A stretch of 64,000 nucleotides of DNA from a virus (Duplodnaviria > Heunggongvirae > Uroviricota > Caudoviricetes). The DNA lies in the IMG/VR virus record IMGVR_UViG_3300045988_150638; one strand, given 5' to 3'. The position numbers and the translations under genes are program-made. Positions within the stretch are counted from its first letter, which is position 1; each line of letters opens with the position of its first letter. A model generated the notes under the pieces. That model was not told the DNA's origin, did no database searches, and saw only the letters and a list, made by a program, of their open reading frames with translations. This document shows, one piece after another, positions 18 to 11,102 of the stretch.

Positions 18-428
18 ATGAATGCGTCATATGCAGTTATTGAAAATGGGATGGTTGTGAATGTCATTGTCTGGGATGGCGAGGCTGAATTCACAGTGCC
101 GGATAATCAGCAGCTCATTAATATTTCTGATATCAGTGAGCAGCCCGGAATCGGCTGGGTGTATTCAGACGGGGGATTTACTGCACCACCCACTCCGGAA
201 CGTTCTCATGATGAACTGGTAGCTGACGCTGAACAGAAAAAACAGTCGCTGATTGATACCGCAATGGCTTCCATTAGTCTTATTCAACTGAAATTACAGG
301 CCGGGCGGAATCTTACGCAGGCTGAAACCACCCGTCTTAACGCTGTGCTGGATTATATCGATGCGGTGACCGCAACGGATACGAGCACTGCACCAGATGT
401 CAATTGGCCAGCGTTCCCGGAGGCGTAG
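18..428 (+). CDS. tail fibre assembly chaperone (Tfa/U-like)
   Basis: 136 aa; C-terminal region has the Tfa-type pattern (LNAVLDYIDAV...APDVNWPAFP); GAGGAG SD upstream of ATG at 18. Confidence 0.5.
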   Translation: MNASYAVIENGMVVNVIVWDGEAEFTVPDNQQLINISDISEQPGIGWVYSDGGFTAPPTPERSHDELVADAEQKKQSLIDTAMASISLIQLKLQAGRNLTQAETTRLNAVLDYIDAVTATDTSTAPDVNWPAFPEA

Positions 429-4866: not shown

Positions 4867-7854
4867 ATGAGCTTAAGCGATCAGGTGGTAATGGCCACCA
4901 GCATAGAAACGCTGATCGAGCTGCTAAAAAACCTGCCCAATTACGGGCGGGTTTCGTATGTGGTGACAGCGAAGGGAGACGAGGTAAAAACAGCGTTTGA
5001 TATCGTCGATGCCTCAGCTCTTTTGGTATCCAATACTCTGGACGGGAAAATTAACCCTGACTATCCCCAGGAACTTCAGCCGCGCGACCGGACCCGCGCA
5101 TCCAGTCTTCTTCAGGTCAACCAGATATCCAAGGATTTGCGTCCTGCCCAGCTTACCGATTCCGGTTTATCCAGCCATGGCGCGCCGATAATTGGTGAGG
5201 ACAATGCCGTTGAGTCAGGTAATGGACGGACCATGGGGATCATCAAAGCCTATCAGGACGGCAATGCGGATCGGTATCGTGAGTACCTGATTGATCATGC
5301 GACCGAATTCGGCATACGACCTGAAAAGGTTGAATCAATGGCGGCTCCGGTACTGGTGCGCCGCCGGTTAACTAAGGTTGACCGCGTTCAGTTTGCCAAA
5401 GACTCAAATATTTCTGATCTTCAGGAAATGGCAGCCAGTGAAAAGGCTTTTGTTGATGCCGACAGCATAACACCGGCGATGATGGCGCTGTTTAATCCGT
5501 CAGAAAGCGGAGATCTGCTTAGCCGCAGTAATGACGCGTTTATTCGCGGATTCATGACGCAAGTTGGTGCCACACAGGCTGCTGGCCTTGTAACGGAAGA
5601 TGGGCGACCAACACGGCAACTTGTAGACCGTATACAAAACGCGATCTTTGCCAAGGCATATAAGGATGCGCGCCTGGTAAGGATGGTTGCAGAAGAACCT
5701 GATCCGGATATGCGTAATGTTCTGACGGCGCTTAATGCGGCAGCCAATGATTTTGTCCAGATGCAGGCTTTGTCAGGAGAAGCGCACAAGCAGGCTGTGA
5801 CAACTATTGTTGATGGCATTGAGACAGCGGATAGCCTCGATAAAAAGGCGCTGGCGGCATTGAAAGATGCGGTAGACCTGGTAAGGCAATCGAAGGAGTC
5901 AGGCCAGCATATTACCGATGTTATTGCTCAGGGGGATATGTTCAGCGAAACGGCCCCGGAAGTGAAAGCACTCGCGTTGTTTATCGTCGCGAATAACCGT
6001 AGCGCGAAGCGTATGGCCACCGCCTTTAAGTTGATGGCGCAACGTATCAATGATGAGTTACAGCACCAGGGCCAGGCGCTCGGGGATATGTTTGGCGGCG
6101 GCGATGTGTCGTTACAGGATATCCTTCGCCAGGTGTCTCAGGAACTGGAAAACGAAGGCATGCAAGGGATATCCGGCGGTCTTTTCGAGTCCGTTTCCGG
6201 CGGTAGTTACAACGGTGTTGCTCCGTATACCAGTTTGCTATTACATCGGGCATCCGGCATCAAAGACATTATTCATCTGATCAGGCTGCTTTCCCGCACA
6301 GATCCCCAGGATGAACAGCTTGTACAAGTGCTTGCGCATTTTGTTCGAATGCCTGTTGCCGACGTGAAAAAATGGTGCCGATTATTCGGTATCAGCAATT
6401 CGTTACTTCGCGGCTTGTTAAATCACGCATCCTCCCTTGGGCGCGATGGCTTTGATGAGATAGCGCAGGCGATAAAAAACGGAGATATGCCACCAGCTAT
6501 TGACTGGTTTTCCATTCGCCCAACTAGGGTGAAAGCATTCCTTAGCGCGGCGCATACGGCATCACCATTGGCAGAAATGGTTCAGAGGTTGTCGCTCATA
6601 TTCACAGATCATACCGCGTTGGGTGATCTGACTCTTGACGAGATGAAAGAAGCCTCCATTCAGTGGGCCGATCAACAAAATGAGGTTAACTCTGACTTCT
6701 TGCCAGCATTCAGGAAGGCCGTTAGTAAAGCGGATGATGCCCGTGGAATTCTGAAGGCATTTAAGGCATTGCAAAGTCGGGTTAATAAACATGTCGGTGA
6801 TATCGATGGGGTAACGGCGGAAGGCAGGGATATCCTTAAAGAGCACGGCATAACGCCAGAGTTTATTGATGAGATCAGGACTGATATGCAGCGTGAGGTC
6901 GTATCGTCCCTGCAAATCGTAGCCAGAGCGTTGGCGGATGCTAATCCGAAGAGTGCGGCCATTGTTAACCAGGTTATTGGTGATATTGAAGCATCGGAGG
7001 GCATGGGGGCGCTGAAACTCTTCCTTTCGCGAGCGTTTAATCCTAACGGCAATATTCTCCCTGGCATTATTGGTGAGGCTAAAAAGTATGTCAGCGAAGA
7101 AGAACTTGAGCATCTTGACCAACTACTTAAGCGATTCTCATATAACCCGCAGACACGCTGGCAAATGAATCAGCGAAGTATGGGTTCGGTCCACGAGAAA
7201 GTGTTATCTGCCATGAACAGTGCGATCGCCAACTCATCCGTATCTGAAGAAAAAGCTCTTGAGTGGGCCGACTCTTTTATCACGGAAGAAGTGGAAGAAG
7301 CCCGCGCTGGACAGAATGGTGGGATAAACCTGCGCAAGGAACTTGCTGATATTTATCGCCTGACTGGCGGGAAAATATCGACCTTATCAAAGGTGGTTCA
7401 CCACCAGGGAAGGGCATATGCAAATCTAAATGGTGTTGTTGCTGTCAATTTGAACGATGAAAATGCAAGAGCACTGTGGCACGAGCTGGGTCATCATCTT
7501 GAGTACAGTAACCCCGGTTTGTTAGAGAAAGCCCGGTCATTCCTGAAGGCCAATGTTGAAGGGGGTAAGCCATCTTTCGTCAATATCGGTGGGCGTGGCA
7601 AGCCTGAATGGTGCTTCAGATCTCGATTGAGTAATATTTATATGGCGAAGGTATACCCGCCAGTCTCAGTGAGTAACTCCGGGAAAATTCGGCAGAAATC
7701 ACCGACTATTTCCAAAACGTCAGCAACGGAAGTATTCTCTATGGCTCTTCAGTTGTATCATGACAAAGAGGCCGCTGCCGCATCACTGATGAATGGTGAC
7801 GGATTGCTGGAACTGTTATTAGGTGTGGCAAAGGAGCTAAATAATGCAGATTAA
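4867..7854 (+). CDS. ddrB: DdrB
   Basis: 995 aa ORF following ddrA; position and size consistent with P1 DdrB. Confidence 0.55.
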   Translation: MSLSDQVVMATSIETLIELLKNLPNYGRVSYVVTAKGDEVKTAFDIVDASALLVSNTLDGKINPDYPQELQPRDRTRASSLLQVNQISKDLRPAQLTDSGLSSHGAPIIGEDNAVESGNGRTMGIIKAYQDGNADRYREYLIDHATEFGIRPEKVESMAAPVLVRRRLTKVDRVQFAKDSNISDLQEMAASEKAFVDADSITPAMMALFNPSESGDLLSRSNDAFIRGFMTQVGATQAAGLVTEDGRPTRQLVDRIQNAIFAKAYKDARLVRMVAEEPDPDMRNVLTALNAAANDFVQMQALSGEAHKQAVTTIVDGIETADSLDKKALAALKDAVDLVRQSKESGQHITDVIAQGDMFSETAPEVKALALFIVANNRSAKRMATAFKLMAQRINDELQHQGQALGDMFGGGDVSLQDILRQVSQELENEGMQGISGGLFESVSGGSYNGVAPYTSLLLHRASGIKDIIHLIRLLSRTDPQDEQLVQVLAHFVRMPVADVKKWCRLFGISNSLLRGLLNHASSLGRDGFDEIAQAIKNGDMPPAIDWFSIRPTRVKAFLSAAHTASPLAEMVQRLSLIFTDHTALGDLTLDEMKEASIQWADQQNEVNSDFLPAFRKAVSKADDARGILKAFKALQSRVNKHVGDIDGVTAEGRDILKEHGITPEFIDEIRTDMQREVVSSLQIVARALADANPKSAAIVNQVIGDIEASEGMGALKLFLSRAFNPNGNILPGIIGEAKKYVSEEELEHLDQLLKRFSYNPQTRWQMNQRSMGSVHEKVLSAMNSAIANSSVSEEKALEWADSFITEEVEEARAGQNGGINLRKELADIYRLTGGKISTLSKVVHHQGRAYANLNGVVAVNLNDENARALWHELGHHLEYSNPGLLEKARSFLKANVEGGKPSFVNIGGRGKPEWCFRSRLSNIYMAKVYPPVSVSNSGKIRQKSPTISKTSATEVFSMALQLYHDKEAAAASLMNGDGLLELLLGVAKELNNAD

Positions 7855-8152
7855 AATCGCAGCGCCATTAGGCGGAGATGCCATTATCGAATTTGATGAT
7901 AATGAAGAAGTTTCCGGGCGTTTAAGCATTATCTCCGGTGACATTACCGAGGACATGATCGCTGAAGCCATAGCTGGGGCAAATCCCAATAGCTATATGG
8001 GATTCGTTAACACCCTTGATGCTCCCGCAAGTGATGTTCTCCGAACGCTGCATCTTTACGCTGGCTGGTTTGTTGATTGGCCAGCAGTAGATGGTGGCGA
8101 TGAGGACGACGACGATGATTTTGGTGATCATGCAGACCAGATCGTATATTGA
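7844..8152 (+). CDS. hypothetical protein with acidic C-terminus
   Basis: 102 aa; start overlaps ddrB stop; ends just before a strong bidirectional terminator. Confidence 0.4.
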   Translation: MQIKIAAPLGGDAIIEFDDNEEVSGRLSIISGDITEDMIAEAIAGANPNSYMGFVNTLDAPASDVLRTLHLYAGWFVDWPAVDGGDEDDDDDFGDHADQIVY

Positions 8153-8154
8153 AG

Positions 8155-8185
8155 AAATCCCGCCAATCGGCGGGATTTGTTGTTT
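8155..8185. terminator. bidirectional rho-independent terminator
   Basis: stem AAATCCCGCC / GGCGGGATTT with 4-nt loop followed by GTTGTTT; lies between convergent genes ending at 8152 and 8184. Confidence 0.6.
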
Positions 8186-9488
8186 ATGCCAGGCGGGCTA
8201 TGCGTATCTTACAATCATCTAGGTGGATGCGTAGCGCTTCTAAACATGGAGTAAAGTTAGCTGAGAATTTGTCGGACTCACAGGCCAATGCATAAAATTT
8301 TTCAGCCAATTCAAGAGATTCATCCCATATTTTTCGACTTACAAAGTCTGGTAGTGCTGTTTTTCTAAGCTCATTAGATATTGCTCCCCCAGAGCGTGGA
8401 GCAAAACCCATAGGTAACATGTCATAGGCTGGAGCAATATGATATGGGCGTCCGTGGCTACTAATAAACGATAGGTTACCATTATGCATATCGGTATTGC
8501 CTATTAGCAAACCAAAAGACCATAGCCTTGTTGCTATAATAATCGCATCAGGATGGACGCACTTATTTTTTACCAACTCTTTAACCAGCAAGGGCCATGT
8601 TGCTCTTGCATTCCCAACAAATTCTGCATCAAGTGCACGAAGTGAGAATACACCTACCCGACCTAGTTGACCAACACGATCAAATCGGGGAATTTCCAAG
8701 AATCTCTGACCGTTATAATCAAAAACTTCTGTTTCTACCCCCAGAACTTTTAATGCGAGATGTTCAGCAAACAAGAGATCTCTCCAACGCTCACTTATAG
8801 GGGTGTCGTTAGGCGCAGAGAATTTCACTAATACATGTCCACGCTCTGTGAAAGTACAAAATTTGGGTTGTTCACCTCCAGCAGATGAACCGGGCACATC
8901 ACCTTCACCAGCAGCTAAAGCTAATACAGGATATTCACTTTCACGATTAACAGGAACAGGAGGCTGCATCTCTAAAAAATGCGTGCGTGCTTGCTCTCCA
9001 ATTAACAAATTACCAACAACATCATGCCCATGCTTAAGTAAGGCTTTGATCACGTCAGTATCTGACCATTGCTCTGGATTTGAGGGAAGGTTAAGTTCAA
9101 GAGCATATGCTGATGCATATGCTCTTCCAAGGAAGCCTTGTGGACGCATATCAAATAACCACCAAGGTAACCCATCGCTATGCCTGTTATTTTTCCCTTC
9201 CTCAACCATAACATAGCCTTCTGGCCTCACCGGAATGAGAGTACCAAGAACGCAAATACACCCCTCTTCAGTTATACGATAAATGGGGACTGATTCGAAT
9301 CCTCTAAAAGAGTCTCGTAAAGCATATTGAATAGATCTTCCATTTCCGATCCTAACGATTTCATCACCAAGATCTCTTAATGCTCTAGATATCGTTGGTT
9401 GGCTAACACCTAGTCTTTCAACCAATTGTCTTGGTGTCATAGGACCTTGATTGAGCAAATTACGGATTGTTGTTGCATGTATAGCCAT
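8184..9488 (-). CDS. HTH-HipA-like Ser/Thr kinase (YjjJ-like)
   Basis: N-terminal HTH (PRQLVERLGVSQPTISRALRDLG) fused to a HipA-type kinase core (GEQPKF, DMHNGNLSF); ORF extends to 9548 but ATG at 9488 (MAIHATT) preferred; AT-richer than flanks. Confidence 0.55.
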   Translation of the reverse strand: MAIHATTIRNLLNQGPMTPRQLVERLGVSQPTISRALRDLGDEIVRIGNGRSIQYALRDSFRGFESVPIYRITEEGCICVLGTLIPVRPEGYVMVEEGKNNRHSDGLPWWLFDMRPQGFLGRAYASAYALELNLPSNPEQWSDTDVIKALLKHGHDVVGNLLIGEQARTHFLEMQPPVPVNRESEYPVLALAAGEGDVPGSSAGGEQPKFCTFTERGHVLVKFSAPNDTPISERWRDLLFAEHLALKVLGVETEVFDYNGQRFLEIPRFDRVGQLGRVGVFSLRALDAEFVGNARATWPLLVKELVKNKCVHPDAIIIATRLWSFGLLIGNTDMHNGNLSFISSHGRPYHIAPAYDMLPMGFAPRSGGAISNELRKTALPDFVSRKIWDESLELAEKFYALACESDKFSANFTPCLEALRIHLDDCKIRIARLA

Positions 9489-9661
9489 AGTTTTAATTAC
9501 TATTGTGAATAGATTAATGAATAGATTCATGAATGCGTACAATAGCAAGCAAAACGGGAGGTGTCACTAATTTAGGTAAGTTAAAAAGACTTCTTTAAAA
9601 GATGATGACTAGGCGCTTTAACTGCTAGCTGACATAACAATTGGCCATTTGACGTGGAGTT

Positions 9662-9687
9662 CCCCGCCAACTGACGGGGTTTTTATT
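9662..9687 (+). terminator. unidirectional rho-independent terminator (plus strand)
   Basis: CCCCG-8 nt loop-CGGGG followed by TTTTTATT on the plus strand only. Confidence 0.4.
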
Positions 9688-10480
9688 AGTCACTTTCTGT
9701 TTCTTCTGGAATGTTTTCTTGCGGTTCTGTTAATGCAGCACGACACAGGTTCCGGGCATTGGCTATAGCCACACTTTTGACTTCATCCGTCATCGTGCAG
9801 GTAATGTACTGATCGAGTTCTTCAGCACGGATGATGCTTTTGCCAATCAGAAACTGTATTTGCCAGAGCAGATCAGCATCCATAATCAGAATTTCTGCCG
9901 GGCCTTCAGGACCAGCCGGGAAGGAAACATAAGACTGTTTGCCCAGGCCGATAACTCGACAACTTGCTTCAAGAATTGCGCGATTGAGGTCTGACTTTAT
10001 AACGGAAACAGGTTGATTTTCACCTGCGATTACGCCGTTGACATGGATGTGGAATGGCATGTAGCTTGAAATTCGCTCTACTTTCCATACGCCAGCAAGC
10101 GATCCTTCATGCAGCACAATGGGGGTAACCGCGAGTTTCATCTCACCATATAACTGCTGGCAGATAGCTGGATTGCTGAATACATCCAAAGGTTCACACT
10201 CAAACAGCGGCGCAATCTGTATGAGGTCCATCATGGTCATACCAGGGGTACGAGCAGTAATGAATCTGCGCATGCCAGTATCCATTGTGCGCCAGATAGC
10301 TACACCATGCTTTTTGCTCACTTCTTCAGTAAAGCCAAGGTGGCACATGATGGTTTTTTCGATAGCCAGATCAGAGATCGAAACCTTTTCGCCAGGTACA
10401 CCATCATTATTGATGGTCACTTCTACACTCTGGCCATTACGCAGGCGGTATTGAATTGTTTTAGTATTTTGTGCTGTCAT
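9686..10480 (-). CDS. hypothetical protein
   Basis: 264 aa ORF between ssb and the HipA-like gene; no motif recognised by eye. Confidence 0.4.
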   Translation of the reverse strand: MTAQNTKTIQYRLRNGQSVEVTINNDGVPGEKVSISDLAIEKTIMCHLGFTEEVSKKHGVAIWRTMDTGMRRFITARTPGMTMMDLIQIAPLFECEPLDVFSNPAICQQLYGEMKLAVTPIVLHEGSLAGVWKVERISSYMPFHIHVNGVIAGENQPVSVIKSDLNRAILEASCRVIGLGKQSYVSFPAGPEGPAEILIMDADLLWQIQFLIGKSIIRAEELDQYITCTMTDEVKSVAIANARNLCRAALTEPQENIPEETESD

Positions 10481-10577: not shown

Positions 10578-11066
10578 TTAAAACGGAATATCGTCGTCAA
10601 AGTCCATTGGAGGTTCGTTATTGGCGTTGCCCTGAGGTTTACCGCCACCACTGTATTGCTGGTGGTTTTGAGGTTGGTTTGATTGCCCCCAGCCATTTGA
10701 GGACTGTGAATCGTCACGGCGAGCGCCTATCATTTGCATGGTGCCGCCCTGGCTGACGATAATTTCCGTCGTGTAACGTTCTACACCGGCGTCATCTGTC
10801 CACTTACGGGTTTTAAGTTTCCCTTCGATGTAGACCTGAGAACCTTTTCGTAAATATTCACTCGCAATTTCAGCAAGTTTTCCGAACAAAACGACTTTAT
10901 GCCATTCTGTTTGCTCTTTCTGTTGGCCCGTTTGCTTGTCGCGCCATGATTCATTCGTTGCGATGCTGAGTATTCCGACCGCTCCGCCATTTGGTATATA
11001 CCTGATCTCCGGGTCTTGCCCCAGGGTACCAATCAGGATGACTTTGTTTACACCGCGTTGTGCCAC
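10578..11066 (-). CDS. ssb: single-stranded DNA-binding protein
   Basis: 162 aa; strong similarity to E. coli SSB including the C-terminal [11 protein letters not shown] tail; GTG start; C1 operator immediately upstream. Confidence 0.9.
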
Positions 11067-11085: not shown

Positions 11086-11102
11086 AAATTAATTAGAGCA
11101 AT
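11086..11102 (-). promoter_or_regulatory. C1 repressor operator (ssb)
   Basis: minus strand reads ATTGCTCTAATTAATTT, 16/17 to the C1 operator consensus. Confidence 0.7.

Follow-up and report, generated by a model that had tools for sequence, protein, structure and literature searches.

What is a HipA-type kinase gene doing on a P1-like phage-plasmid, and how is it restrained there? Kinases of the HipA family are familiar chiefly as persistence toxins encoded on chromosomes. The question is raised by a 64,000-nucleotide stretch of DNA from a virus of the Caudoviricetes (IMG/VR record IMGVR_UViG_3300045988_150638), which is referred to below as the window. The window is a P1-like (IncY) phage-plasmid, and between its dar operon and ssb it carries a gene predicted to encode an N-terminal helix-turn-helix (HTH) joined to a HipA-type kinase, the architecture of the HipH (YjjJ) family. 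Our overall reading, to which we give a probability of about 0.6, is that this is an acquired single-gene HipH cassette encoding a kinase that represses its own synthesis and would arrest growth when its level or activity rises. The protein family is already known and the gene is already annotated automatically, its RefSeq label being yjjJ; what is new is the member borne by a P1-like phage-plasmid.

Identity of the protein

The coding sequence occupies 8184-9488 on the minus strand, with an ATG start at 9488 and a TAA stop at 8184-8186, and specifies 434 amino acids; the same 1305-bp coding sequence is called by PGAP in identical plasmids. The product scores 533.6 bits against the NCBIfam equivalog model NF007297 ‘HipA family toxin YjjJ’, for which the cut-off is 401, and covers model positions 3-446 of 446. 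It is colinear over its full length with HipH of Escherichia coli K-12 at 35% identity (E 6e-90), compared with 24% identity to HipA. The HipH family is clade X of Gerdes et al. (2021), which has an HTH within an N-terminal extension of about 100 amino acids; the N-terminal region of the P1-borne protein aligns with the HTH of K-12 HipH, and the higher identity to HipH than to HipA points indirectly to a place in that clade. Pfam places a winged HTH of the ArsR/MarR type at the N terminus (residues 4-47, minus strand 9348..9479; HTH_5 6.7e-7, MarR_2 1.5e-6), and the residues S29 Q30 x T32 x S34 R35 within it are invariant in 30 homologues and also present in K-12 HipH. The HipA_C kinase core lies at residues 201-363 (minus strand 8400..8888; PF07804 2.9e-15) and can be aligned to the HipT(Lp) and HipA chains among the PDB sequences. 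The PDB contains no HipH structure and gave only weak HipT and HipA matches to the P1-borne protein, and no nuclease domain was detected in it with Pfam.

The residues required of a working kinase were compared in an alignment (A2) of the P1-borne protein, HipA and HipH of E. coli K-12 and five homologues of closer kinship, in which all catalytic positions are invariant. On the minus strand, the Gly-rich (ATP) loop PGSSAGGEQPKF (8859..8894) includes S201, A203 and G204, which are invariant even in HipA, the catalytic motif GNTDMHNGNLS (8469..8501) supplies the invariant columns D333, H335 and N338, and the Mg-binding motif PAYDML (8415..8432) supplies Y355 and D356. The P1-borne and HipA residues pair as S201/S150, K222/K181, D333/D309, H335/H311, N338/N314 and D356/D332. 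The roles of these residues in HipA are generally known, S150 being the autophosphorylation site. The kinase catalytic residues are kept in homologues that range from 35% to 72% identity.

By sequence, then, the P1-borne protein is a member of the HipH (YjjJ) family with an HTH fused to a complete HipA-type Ser/Thr kinase core, and every testable defining feature of the family can be recognised in it. An earlier annotation of this DNA made without database searches, which we call the sequence-only reading, had proposed a YjjJ-like protein with an N-terminal HTH and a HipA-type core. All three proposals were right: the core motifs that it cited are present as GGEQPKF (residues 204-210) and DMHNGNLSF (residues 333-341), and its reservation that the kinase motifs might prove degenerate on alignment is answered by the invariance of every catalytic column.

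Alternative starts lie upstream, an ATG at 9530 that would give 448 amino acids and a TTG at 9548 that would give 454, while the 434-residue start is the one in agreement with all homologues. Start calls vary among the databases. Most RefSeq records give 434 amino acids, WP_306790999.1 (L094:12085-13431) gives 448 from the ATG at 9530, which falls inside the repeat array described below (window 9489-9548 region), and the PHROG profile phrog_30447 has a length of 448 positions.

Relatives and selection

A search of 5.8 billion proteins returned nothing above 72% identity beyond the protein's own cluster, and no donor was found, the nearest non-P1 protein being 72% identical. Relatives of about 70% identity are 434-residue ‘YjjJ’ proteins of Pantoea, Serratia, Gibbsiella, Enterobacter and other Enterobacterales. 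Relatives of 48-65% identity are common in Betaproteobacteria, with at least 593 matching stretches in GTDB species-representative genomes. Most homologues are chromosomal. Two P1-borne alleles exist, which are 97.3% identical across a 1.65-kb query region and differ at 25 nucleotides of the coding sequence (about 2%), 15 of them synonymous and 10 non-synonymous. The ratio of non-synonymous to synonymous substitution rates (dN/dS) between them is 0.17-0.20 and no substitution falls within the catalytic motifs, and we therefore regard the kinase gene as maintained by purifying selection.

Three observations concern the homologues themselves. The K-12-type chromosomal hipH (L002:5770-7101) has a megablast match in 1348 of 5426 complete E. 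coli genomes and is thus accessory in the species. The 72% identical homologue P0002, on a metagenome contig (L010:1-11161), lies in an integrative island with a tyrosine integrase, AlpA, Fic, a BrxR-type WYL regulator and a YagK/YfjJ-family protein. Enterobacter homologues (L008, L009:1-11305) have the copper/silver efflux genes cusCFBA on one side and three HBL-like genes plus pcoE on the other, a context that resembles a metal-resistance island; HBL is the Bacillus haemolytic enterotoxin family.

A repeat array between promoter and start codon

The gene has a predicted sigma-70-like promoter on the minus strand at 9539..9567, made up of GTGACA, a 17-nt spacer and then TG and TATTGT, an extended -10. 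Between this promoter and the ATG, the leader is taken up by an array of four repeats spaced at 12 nt, GCATTCA, CTATTCA, CTATTCA and GTAATTA (minus strand 9494..9536), which is a candidate operator. The arrangement is shared by the family: a (G/A)TGAC -35 element and a -10 element just before the first repeat recur in homologues, the latter as a TAnAAT-like box directly upstream of the first unit, and the arrays of homologues have 2-4 units, the last of which most often begins 12 nt before the ATG. Of 84 regions upstream of homologues, 73 contain a repeat pair with 12-nt spacing, as against 61 of 4100 random 200-nt segments of the same loci (1.5%). The array is found in the leader of K-12 hipH (L002:5736-5766) as well as in homologues in unlike genomic contexts. 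Between the two P1-borne alleles the promoter and the repeat cores are conserved and the spacers are variable. The 64-kb window contains no second CTATTCA array, and its one match with 2 mismatches is consistent with chance.

Relative to the transcription start site used by Reg-Seq, the repeats of K-12 hipH lie at +19..25, +31..37 and +43..49, and they coincide with a repressor site at +30..+45 that Reg-Seq mapped but assigned to no factor, sequence TCTATTCACGAATCTA (PMC7567609). No description of CTATTCA repeats was found in the HipH literature searched. This candidate operator shared across the family, together with its coincidence with the orphan Reg-Seq site, is new here and is the most useful new lead from this analysis. 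Because the protein's own HTH is the only trans-acting factor that always accompanies the repeats, we infer negative autoregulation: the distribution of the repeats suggests that they are the operator of that HTH, through which the protein would repress its own gene. Since chromosomal hipH has matching repeats and matching recognition residues in its HTH, prophage and chromosomal copies may also cross-regulate one another.

An accessory cassette in the P1 backbone

The local gene order is ddrB (+), hxr (+), kinase gene (-), isaA-like (-), ssb (-) and lyz (+). The gene ddrB of the dar operon (4867-7854, plus strand) is followed by hxr (7844..8152, plus strand), which encodes the 102-residue P1 Hxr, matches the annotated P1 hxr and forms the left flank of the insertion hotspot. 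The right flank is the isaA-like gene (9686..10480), which lies on the minus strand as the kinase gene does; its 264-residue product is 94.5% identical to that of P1 isaA and matches phrog_2326. Upstream of the cassette on the minus strand is ssb (10578..11066; Pfam SSB 1.9e-39 and P1 annotation), the first gene of the C1-controlled ssb-isaA unit.

Comparison with the empty site of phage SJ46 (L003) delimits an inserted single-gene cassette of about 1.5 kb at 8179..9679, minus strand. Window positions 7600-8181 correspond to L003 2301-2885 and 9663-10470 to L003 2863-3664; in SJ46 hxr is followed by a single bidirectional terminator and then isaA, and the window matches both sides of that terminator. 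The bidirectional intrinsic terminator at 8155..8178 is common to hxr on the plus strand and the kinase gene on the minus strand, with a 10-bp stem and a T-run on the plus strand. Its minus-strand RNA folds with -20.3 kcal/mol (z -2.8), and the hairpin is identical in 813R1 and nearly so in SJ46; by this comparison the terminator is part of the P1 backbone. A second GC hairpin (9662..9679, plus strand) stands at the promoter-distal cassette end. It is 80% identical to the left one, so that two such hairpins, 8159-8178 and 9663-9682, flank the cassette, and it has a T-run on the plus strand only.

The composition of the cassette also sets it apart. Its GC content is 42.0% as against 48.3% for the window, where only 3.4% of 1.5-kb segments are equally low, and GC content at third codon positions (GC3) is 28.7% in the kinase gene as against 50.7% in ddrB.

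The gene is missing from P1, where the same site reads hxr, isaB, IS1, isaA, ssb; no homologue was found there or elsewhere in the P1 genome, and the gene is absent from P7, SJ46, RCS47 and 813R1 as well. When 50,697 phage records were searched with the protein by tblastn, none matched at E <= 1e-5, which makes a widespread family of E. coli phage-plasmids an unusual carrier for an intact, selected HipH. Among approximately 327 P1-like plasmids in PLSDB, the kinase cassette occupies the hotspot in 29 (about 9%), a 356-residue open reading frame (ORF) of the 813R1 type in 119 and the complete isaB region in 25. These occupants of the hxr-isaA site are mutually exclusive alternatives, all inserted beside the hxr terminator. 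The cassette is present in 25 of the 304 complete E. coli genomes that match any part of the 1.65-kb query, and the exact protein occurs in 1264 blocks of the assembly collection. The context was the same at all eight places inspected, drawn from 24 contigs: darA-ddrB-hxr, the gene, and isaA-ssb-lyz. Some of these P1-like phage-plasmids also bear resistance genes. From its distribution and composition, the kinase gene is horizontally acquired accessory cargo of P1-like plasmids and not a P1 core gene.

On this ground too the sequence-only reading was largely accurate. It had placed the gene between the dar operon and ssb, where ddrB and hxr on one side and isaA and ssb on the other indeed enclose it, and had called it richer in AT than its surroundings, as the GC and GC3 values confirm. 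The strong bidirectional terminator that it described exists, but its statement that this terminator brackets the gene fails for that hairpin alone, which closes the 3′ end only, and becomes true only when the second hairpin at 9662-9679 is counted. Its own objection, that the gene might be a conserved core gene of P1-like phages, does not apply, given the absence from P1 and the presence in 29 of 327 P1-like plasmids.

Further features of these elements were noted. The commonest hotspot occupant, the 356-residue ORF of 813R1 (L004:2908-3978), matches phrog_5902 and weakly resembles the large subunits of terminases (phrog_2, 3.3e-9), and its end overlaps isaA. Between isaA and ssb, SJ46 encodes a 281-residue ‘hypothetical’ protein (L003:3675-4520) with a C-terminal Tad2-like domain (PF11195, 2.6e-22); this Tad2-like (Thoeris anti-defence 2) gene is absent from the window, where the isaA-ssb gap is about 100 bp. 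The record NZ_CM148631.1 (L094, E. coli PK-F-10122 ‘chromosome’, 4425417-4451067) contains a P1-like segment including the cassette, which is either an integrated element or an assembly join.

Transcription from the neighbouring C1-controlled unit

A repressor operator, Ossb, lies on the minus strand at 11086..11102 with one mismatch to the C1 consensus, and the Ossb/Pssb region is 100% identical to that of P1 (21015-21031). No C1 operator was found within the cassette, and direct C1 control of the kinase gene was accordingly rejected. An indirect route is possible. The hairpin at 9662..9679 should be a poor stop for isaA transcripts because its T-run is on the plus strand only; on the minus strand the hairpin is followed by AACUCCACG. 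As there is no U-tract after the minus-strand hairpin, transcripts of the C1-controlled ssb-isaA unit may run on into the kinase gene after induction. Across the window (11086-62244) there are 14 matches to the C1 operator consensus with at most 3 mismatches, as against 0.33 expected by chance, which confirms that the P1-type immunity network of this element is intact.

Searches for a partner or antitoxin

The neighbourhood was surveyed in 701 ORFs within 6 kb of the gene at 77 homologue loci. No conserved partner gene emerged, the most recurrent neighbour family being present at 7 of the 77, and among the 136 nearest neighbours of homologues no Pfam family was seen more than 3 times. These 136 are mostly housekeeping genes with isolated defence genes, each family once, a raw tally that leans against an enrichment in defence islands. 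The 173-nt upstream region offers no credible hidden antitoxin, its only ORFs being of 21-39 amino acids, and the sole Rfam match in the cassette is a sub-threshold small RNA (E 0.087), with no family assigned. In the 64-kb window there is no HipB homologue (tblastn, E <= 1) and no second Hip kinase. The adjacent Hxr was considered as a HipB-like partner and rejected, since it has no BLASTP similarity to HipB and no Pfam HTH match. PADLOC-DB 2.0 gave only weak matches (E 2e-4 or worse), to HTH models and to the candidate PDC-M03A.

By these searches the kinase gene is solitary, as HipH is elsewhere; HipH has been described as monocistronic and without an antitoxin gene (PMC8262856). In the literature on P1-like elements and phage-plasmids with HipA or YjjJ, no description of a P1-borne gene was found.

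Weighing the proposed role

The course of events that we propose begins with the HTH, which would bind the leader repeats and, by self-repression, keep the amount of a potentially toxic kinase steadily low in the lysogen. A rise in its level or activity would lead to phosphorylation of host proteins and to slowed or arrested growth, as with overproduced K-12 HipH, and one route to such a rise could be transcription that continues, after induction, from the C1-controlled ssb-isaA unit into the gene. We favour an active, self-repressed kinase because homologues of 35% to 72% identity all keep the catalytic residues without exception. K-12 HipH is toxic when overproduced and phosphorylates RpmE, CsrA and itself, and its toxicity is lowered by mutations of the Mg- and ATP-binding motifs and rescued by HipB (PMC9948734). 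Its HTH is needed both for toxicity and for nucleoid localisation (PMC11452175). Toxicity of the P1-borne protein would follow from analogy with this single relative, which is 35% identical.

Several points weigh against this reading. As a rule, HTH proteins of the ArsR/MarR type attach as dimers to palindromic sites and not to direct repeats. The leader of the P1-borne gene has no Shine-Dalgarno sequence, which is missing from most hipH-family leaders because the last repeat lies 12 nt before the ATG. An AlphaFold2 model built from a 30-sequence alignment with homologues 67-72% identical reached a mean pLDDT (predicted local distance difference test) of only 58.6, too poor a value to serve, so that the fold is supported by sequence only. 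The substrates and toxicity of K-12 HipH are not simply transferable, as the only studied relative is 35% identical. Reg-Seq attributed a site adjacent to the orphan one, at -24..+18, to MarA (PMC7567609), and the HipH papers conflict, one reporting kinase-dependent toxicity (PMC9948734) and the other a kinase-independent, HTH-dependent DNase (PMC11452175).

The last of these conflicts bears directly on what the protein might do instead. If it were an HTH-dependent genotoxic DNase restrained by cyclic di-GMP (c-di-GMP), as claimed for K-12 HipH, its target would be DNA; in that study toxicity was lost on deletion of the HTH and kept on deletion of the catalytic motif, c-di-GMP inhibited DNA cleavage (PMC11452175), and the P1-borne protein keeps the HTH recognition residues. 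Yet no nuclease domain is detectable, mutations of the Mg- and ATP-binding motifs lowered toxicity in an independent study (PMC9948734), and the invariance of the kinase catalytic residues in homologues of 35-72% identity argues for selection on kinase activity, which leaves a DNase decidedly unlikely. A kinase could also be put to phage use. Were C1 inactivation to lead to read-through from Pssb via isaA, the enzyme might reprogramme host translation and metabolism early in lytic growth. The shared orientation with ssb-isaA, the perfect identity of Ossb and Pssb to P1 and the minus-strand hairpin without a U-tract after isaA all suit such a takeover, and the K-12 HipH targets are ribosomal protein L31 and CsrA (PMC9948734). 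We consider it unlikely nonetheless, as the gene, like its chromosomal homologues, comes with a conserved promoter and operator of its own, about 90% of P1-like elements do without it in their development, and the read-through is deduced from DNA sequence alone. A single-gene anti-phage module for abortive infection or superinfection exclusion, roles that the sequence-only reading had put forward beside addiction, in which infection by another phage would activate or derepress the kinase and arrest the lysogen before the invader completes its cycle, is a more serious possibility, although still an improbable one. HipA-family kinases have been validated in defence (HipAD, DS-6; PMC13092281), the gene occupies a hotspot of changing cargo in a temperate element, the closest homologue outside P1-like elements (72%) is part of the integrase/AlpA/Fic/BrxR island, another homologue adjoins a type I restriction-modification system, and defence matches are scattered among the nearest neighbours of homologues. 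But those neighbours are mostly housekeeping genes and each defence family appears once in 136, the PADLOC matches are all weak (E > 1e-4), HipAD has two genes where the P1-borne gene stands alone, and no sensor domain is evident in the protein.

The remaining explanations concern the persistence of the gene on its carrier. Plasmid addiction by post-segregational killing, with the N-terminal HTH as a cis antitoxin or with a collapse of autoregulation after plasmid loss, would suit a low-copy plasmid-prophage. However, no separate labile antidote was found in the cassette or the window, on which account classical addiction is unlikely, the product of a self-repressed gene would merely be diluted after plasmid loss, phd-doc already serves P1-type elements, and most homologues are chromosomal. 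The HTH extension has been proposed by Gerdes et al. as a possible cis-acting antitoxin (PMC8262856), and hipBA is reported to stabilise plasmids in Klebsiella michiganensis (PMC11487325); even so, we hold addiction to be very improbable here. That the gene is a functionless passenger, hitch-hiking without a role for the phage-plasmid, agrees with its presence in a minority of P1-like elements, but is the least credible view of all: both allele lineages retain an undamaged ORF at a dN/dS of about 0.2, the promoter and repeat cores are conserved, and the exact protein recurs in the 1264 assembly-collection blocks. We thus retain the self-repressed kinase as the preferred reading. Its boldest extension, a self-contained one-polypeptide toxin module with an operator-binding HTH, a regulatory N-subdomain and a kinase, acting as an infection- or induction-triggered arrest switch for exclusion, abortive infection or host takeover and tied into a host dormancy circuit by mutual repression with host hipH, is speculative and seems to us doubtful.

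Comparison with known systems

Should the gene prove to change how lysogens grow, tolerate antibiotics or resist phages, it would count as a lysogenic-conversion trait that spreads with P1-like elements. The repeat operator offers a testable answer to how a toxin kinase without an antitoxin stays restrained, and self-repression, if true, would provide a factor for the orphan Reg-Seq repressor site in E. coli K-12.

Among known systems, HipBST and HipAD resemble the P1-borne kinase in the enzyme and differ in the number of parts. Legionella HipT (PDB 8EZR) is the best sequence match among solved structures, over residues 251-367 including the catalytic and Mg motifs, and HipH was aligned colinearly with HipT by Gerdes et al. 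(PMC8262856); HipBST, however, consists of three genes with separate HipB and HipS, whereas the P1-borne protein is a single polypeptide. HipAD (DS-6) includes a HipA-family kinase with a catalytic residue needed for phage defence (PMC13092281), but it is made of two proteins with a DUF3037/DUF1829 partner, no such partner accompanies the P1-borne kinase, and the likeness is that of the HipA fold. The other occupants of the hxr-isaA site, isaB with IS1 in P1 and the phrog_5902 ORF in 813R1, share the insertion point and are without recognisable domains, so that the kinase is the only recognisable toxin-family enzyme among them.

HipBA of K-12 has a homologous kinase core, with aligned equivalents of S150, K181, D309 and D332, and likewise an HTH-mediated operator, in this case through HipB. 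The two differ in that identity is 24%, the P1-borne HTH is fused to the kinase with no hipB in the cassette or window, and HipB-type palindromes contrast with the direct repeats of the candidate operator. The closest counterpart is K-12 HipH (YjjJ, b4385), which over its full length has the HTH, an N-subdomain, the HipA-type core and all four kinase motifs, passes NF007297, is monocistronic and carries the CTATTCA array in its leader. The P1-borne protein nevertheless belongs to a different and much more widespread subgroup, marked by a PWWLFDM signature and found in Enterobacterales and Betaproteobacteria, and where the K-12 gene occupies the chromosomal deoD-lplA locus, the P1-borne gene travels on a phage-plasmid.

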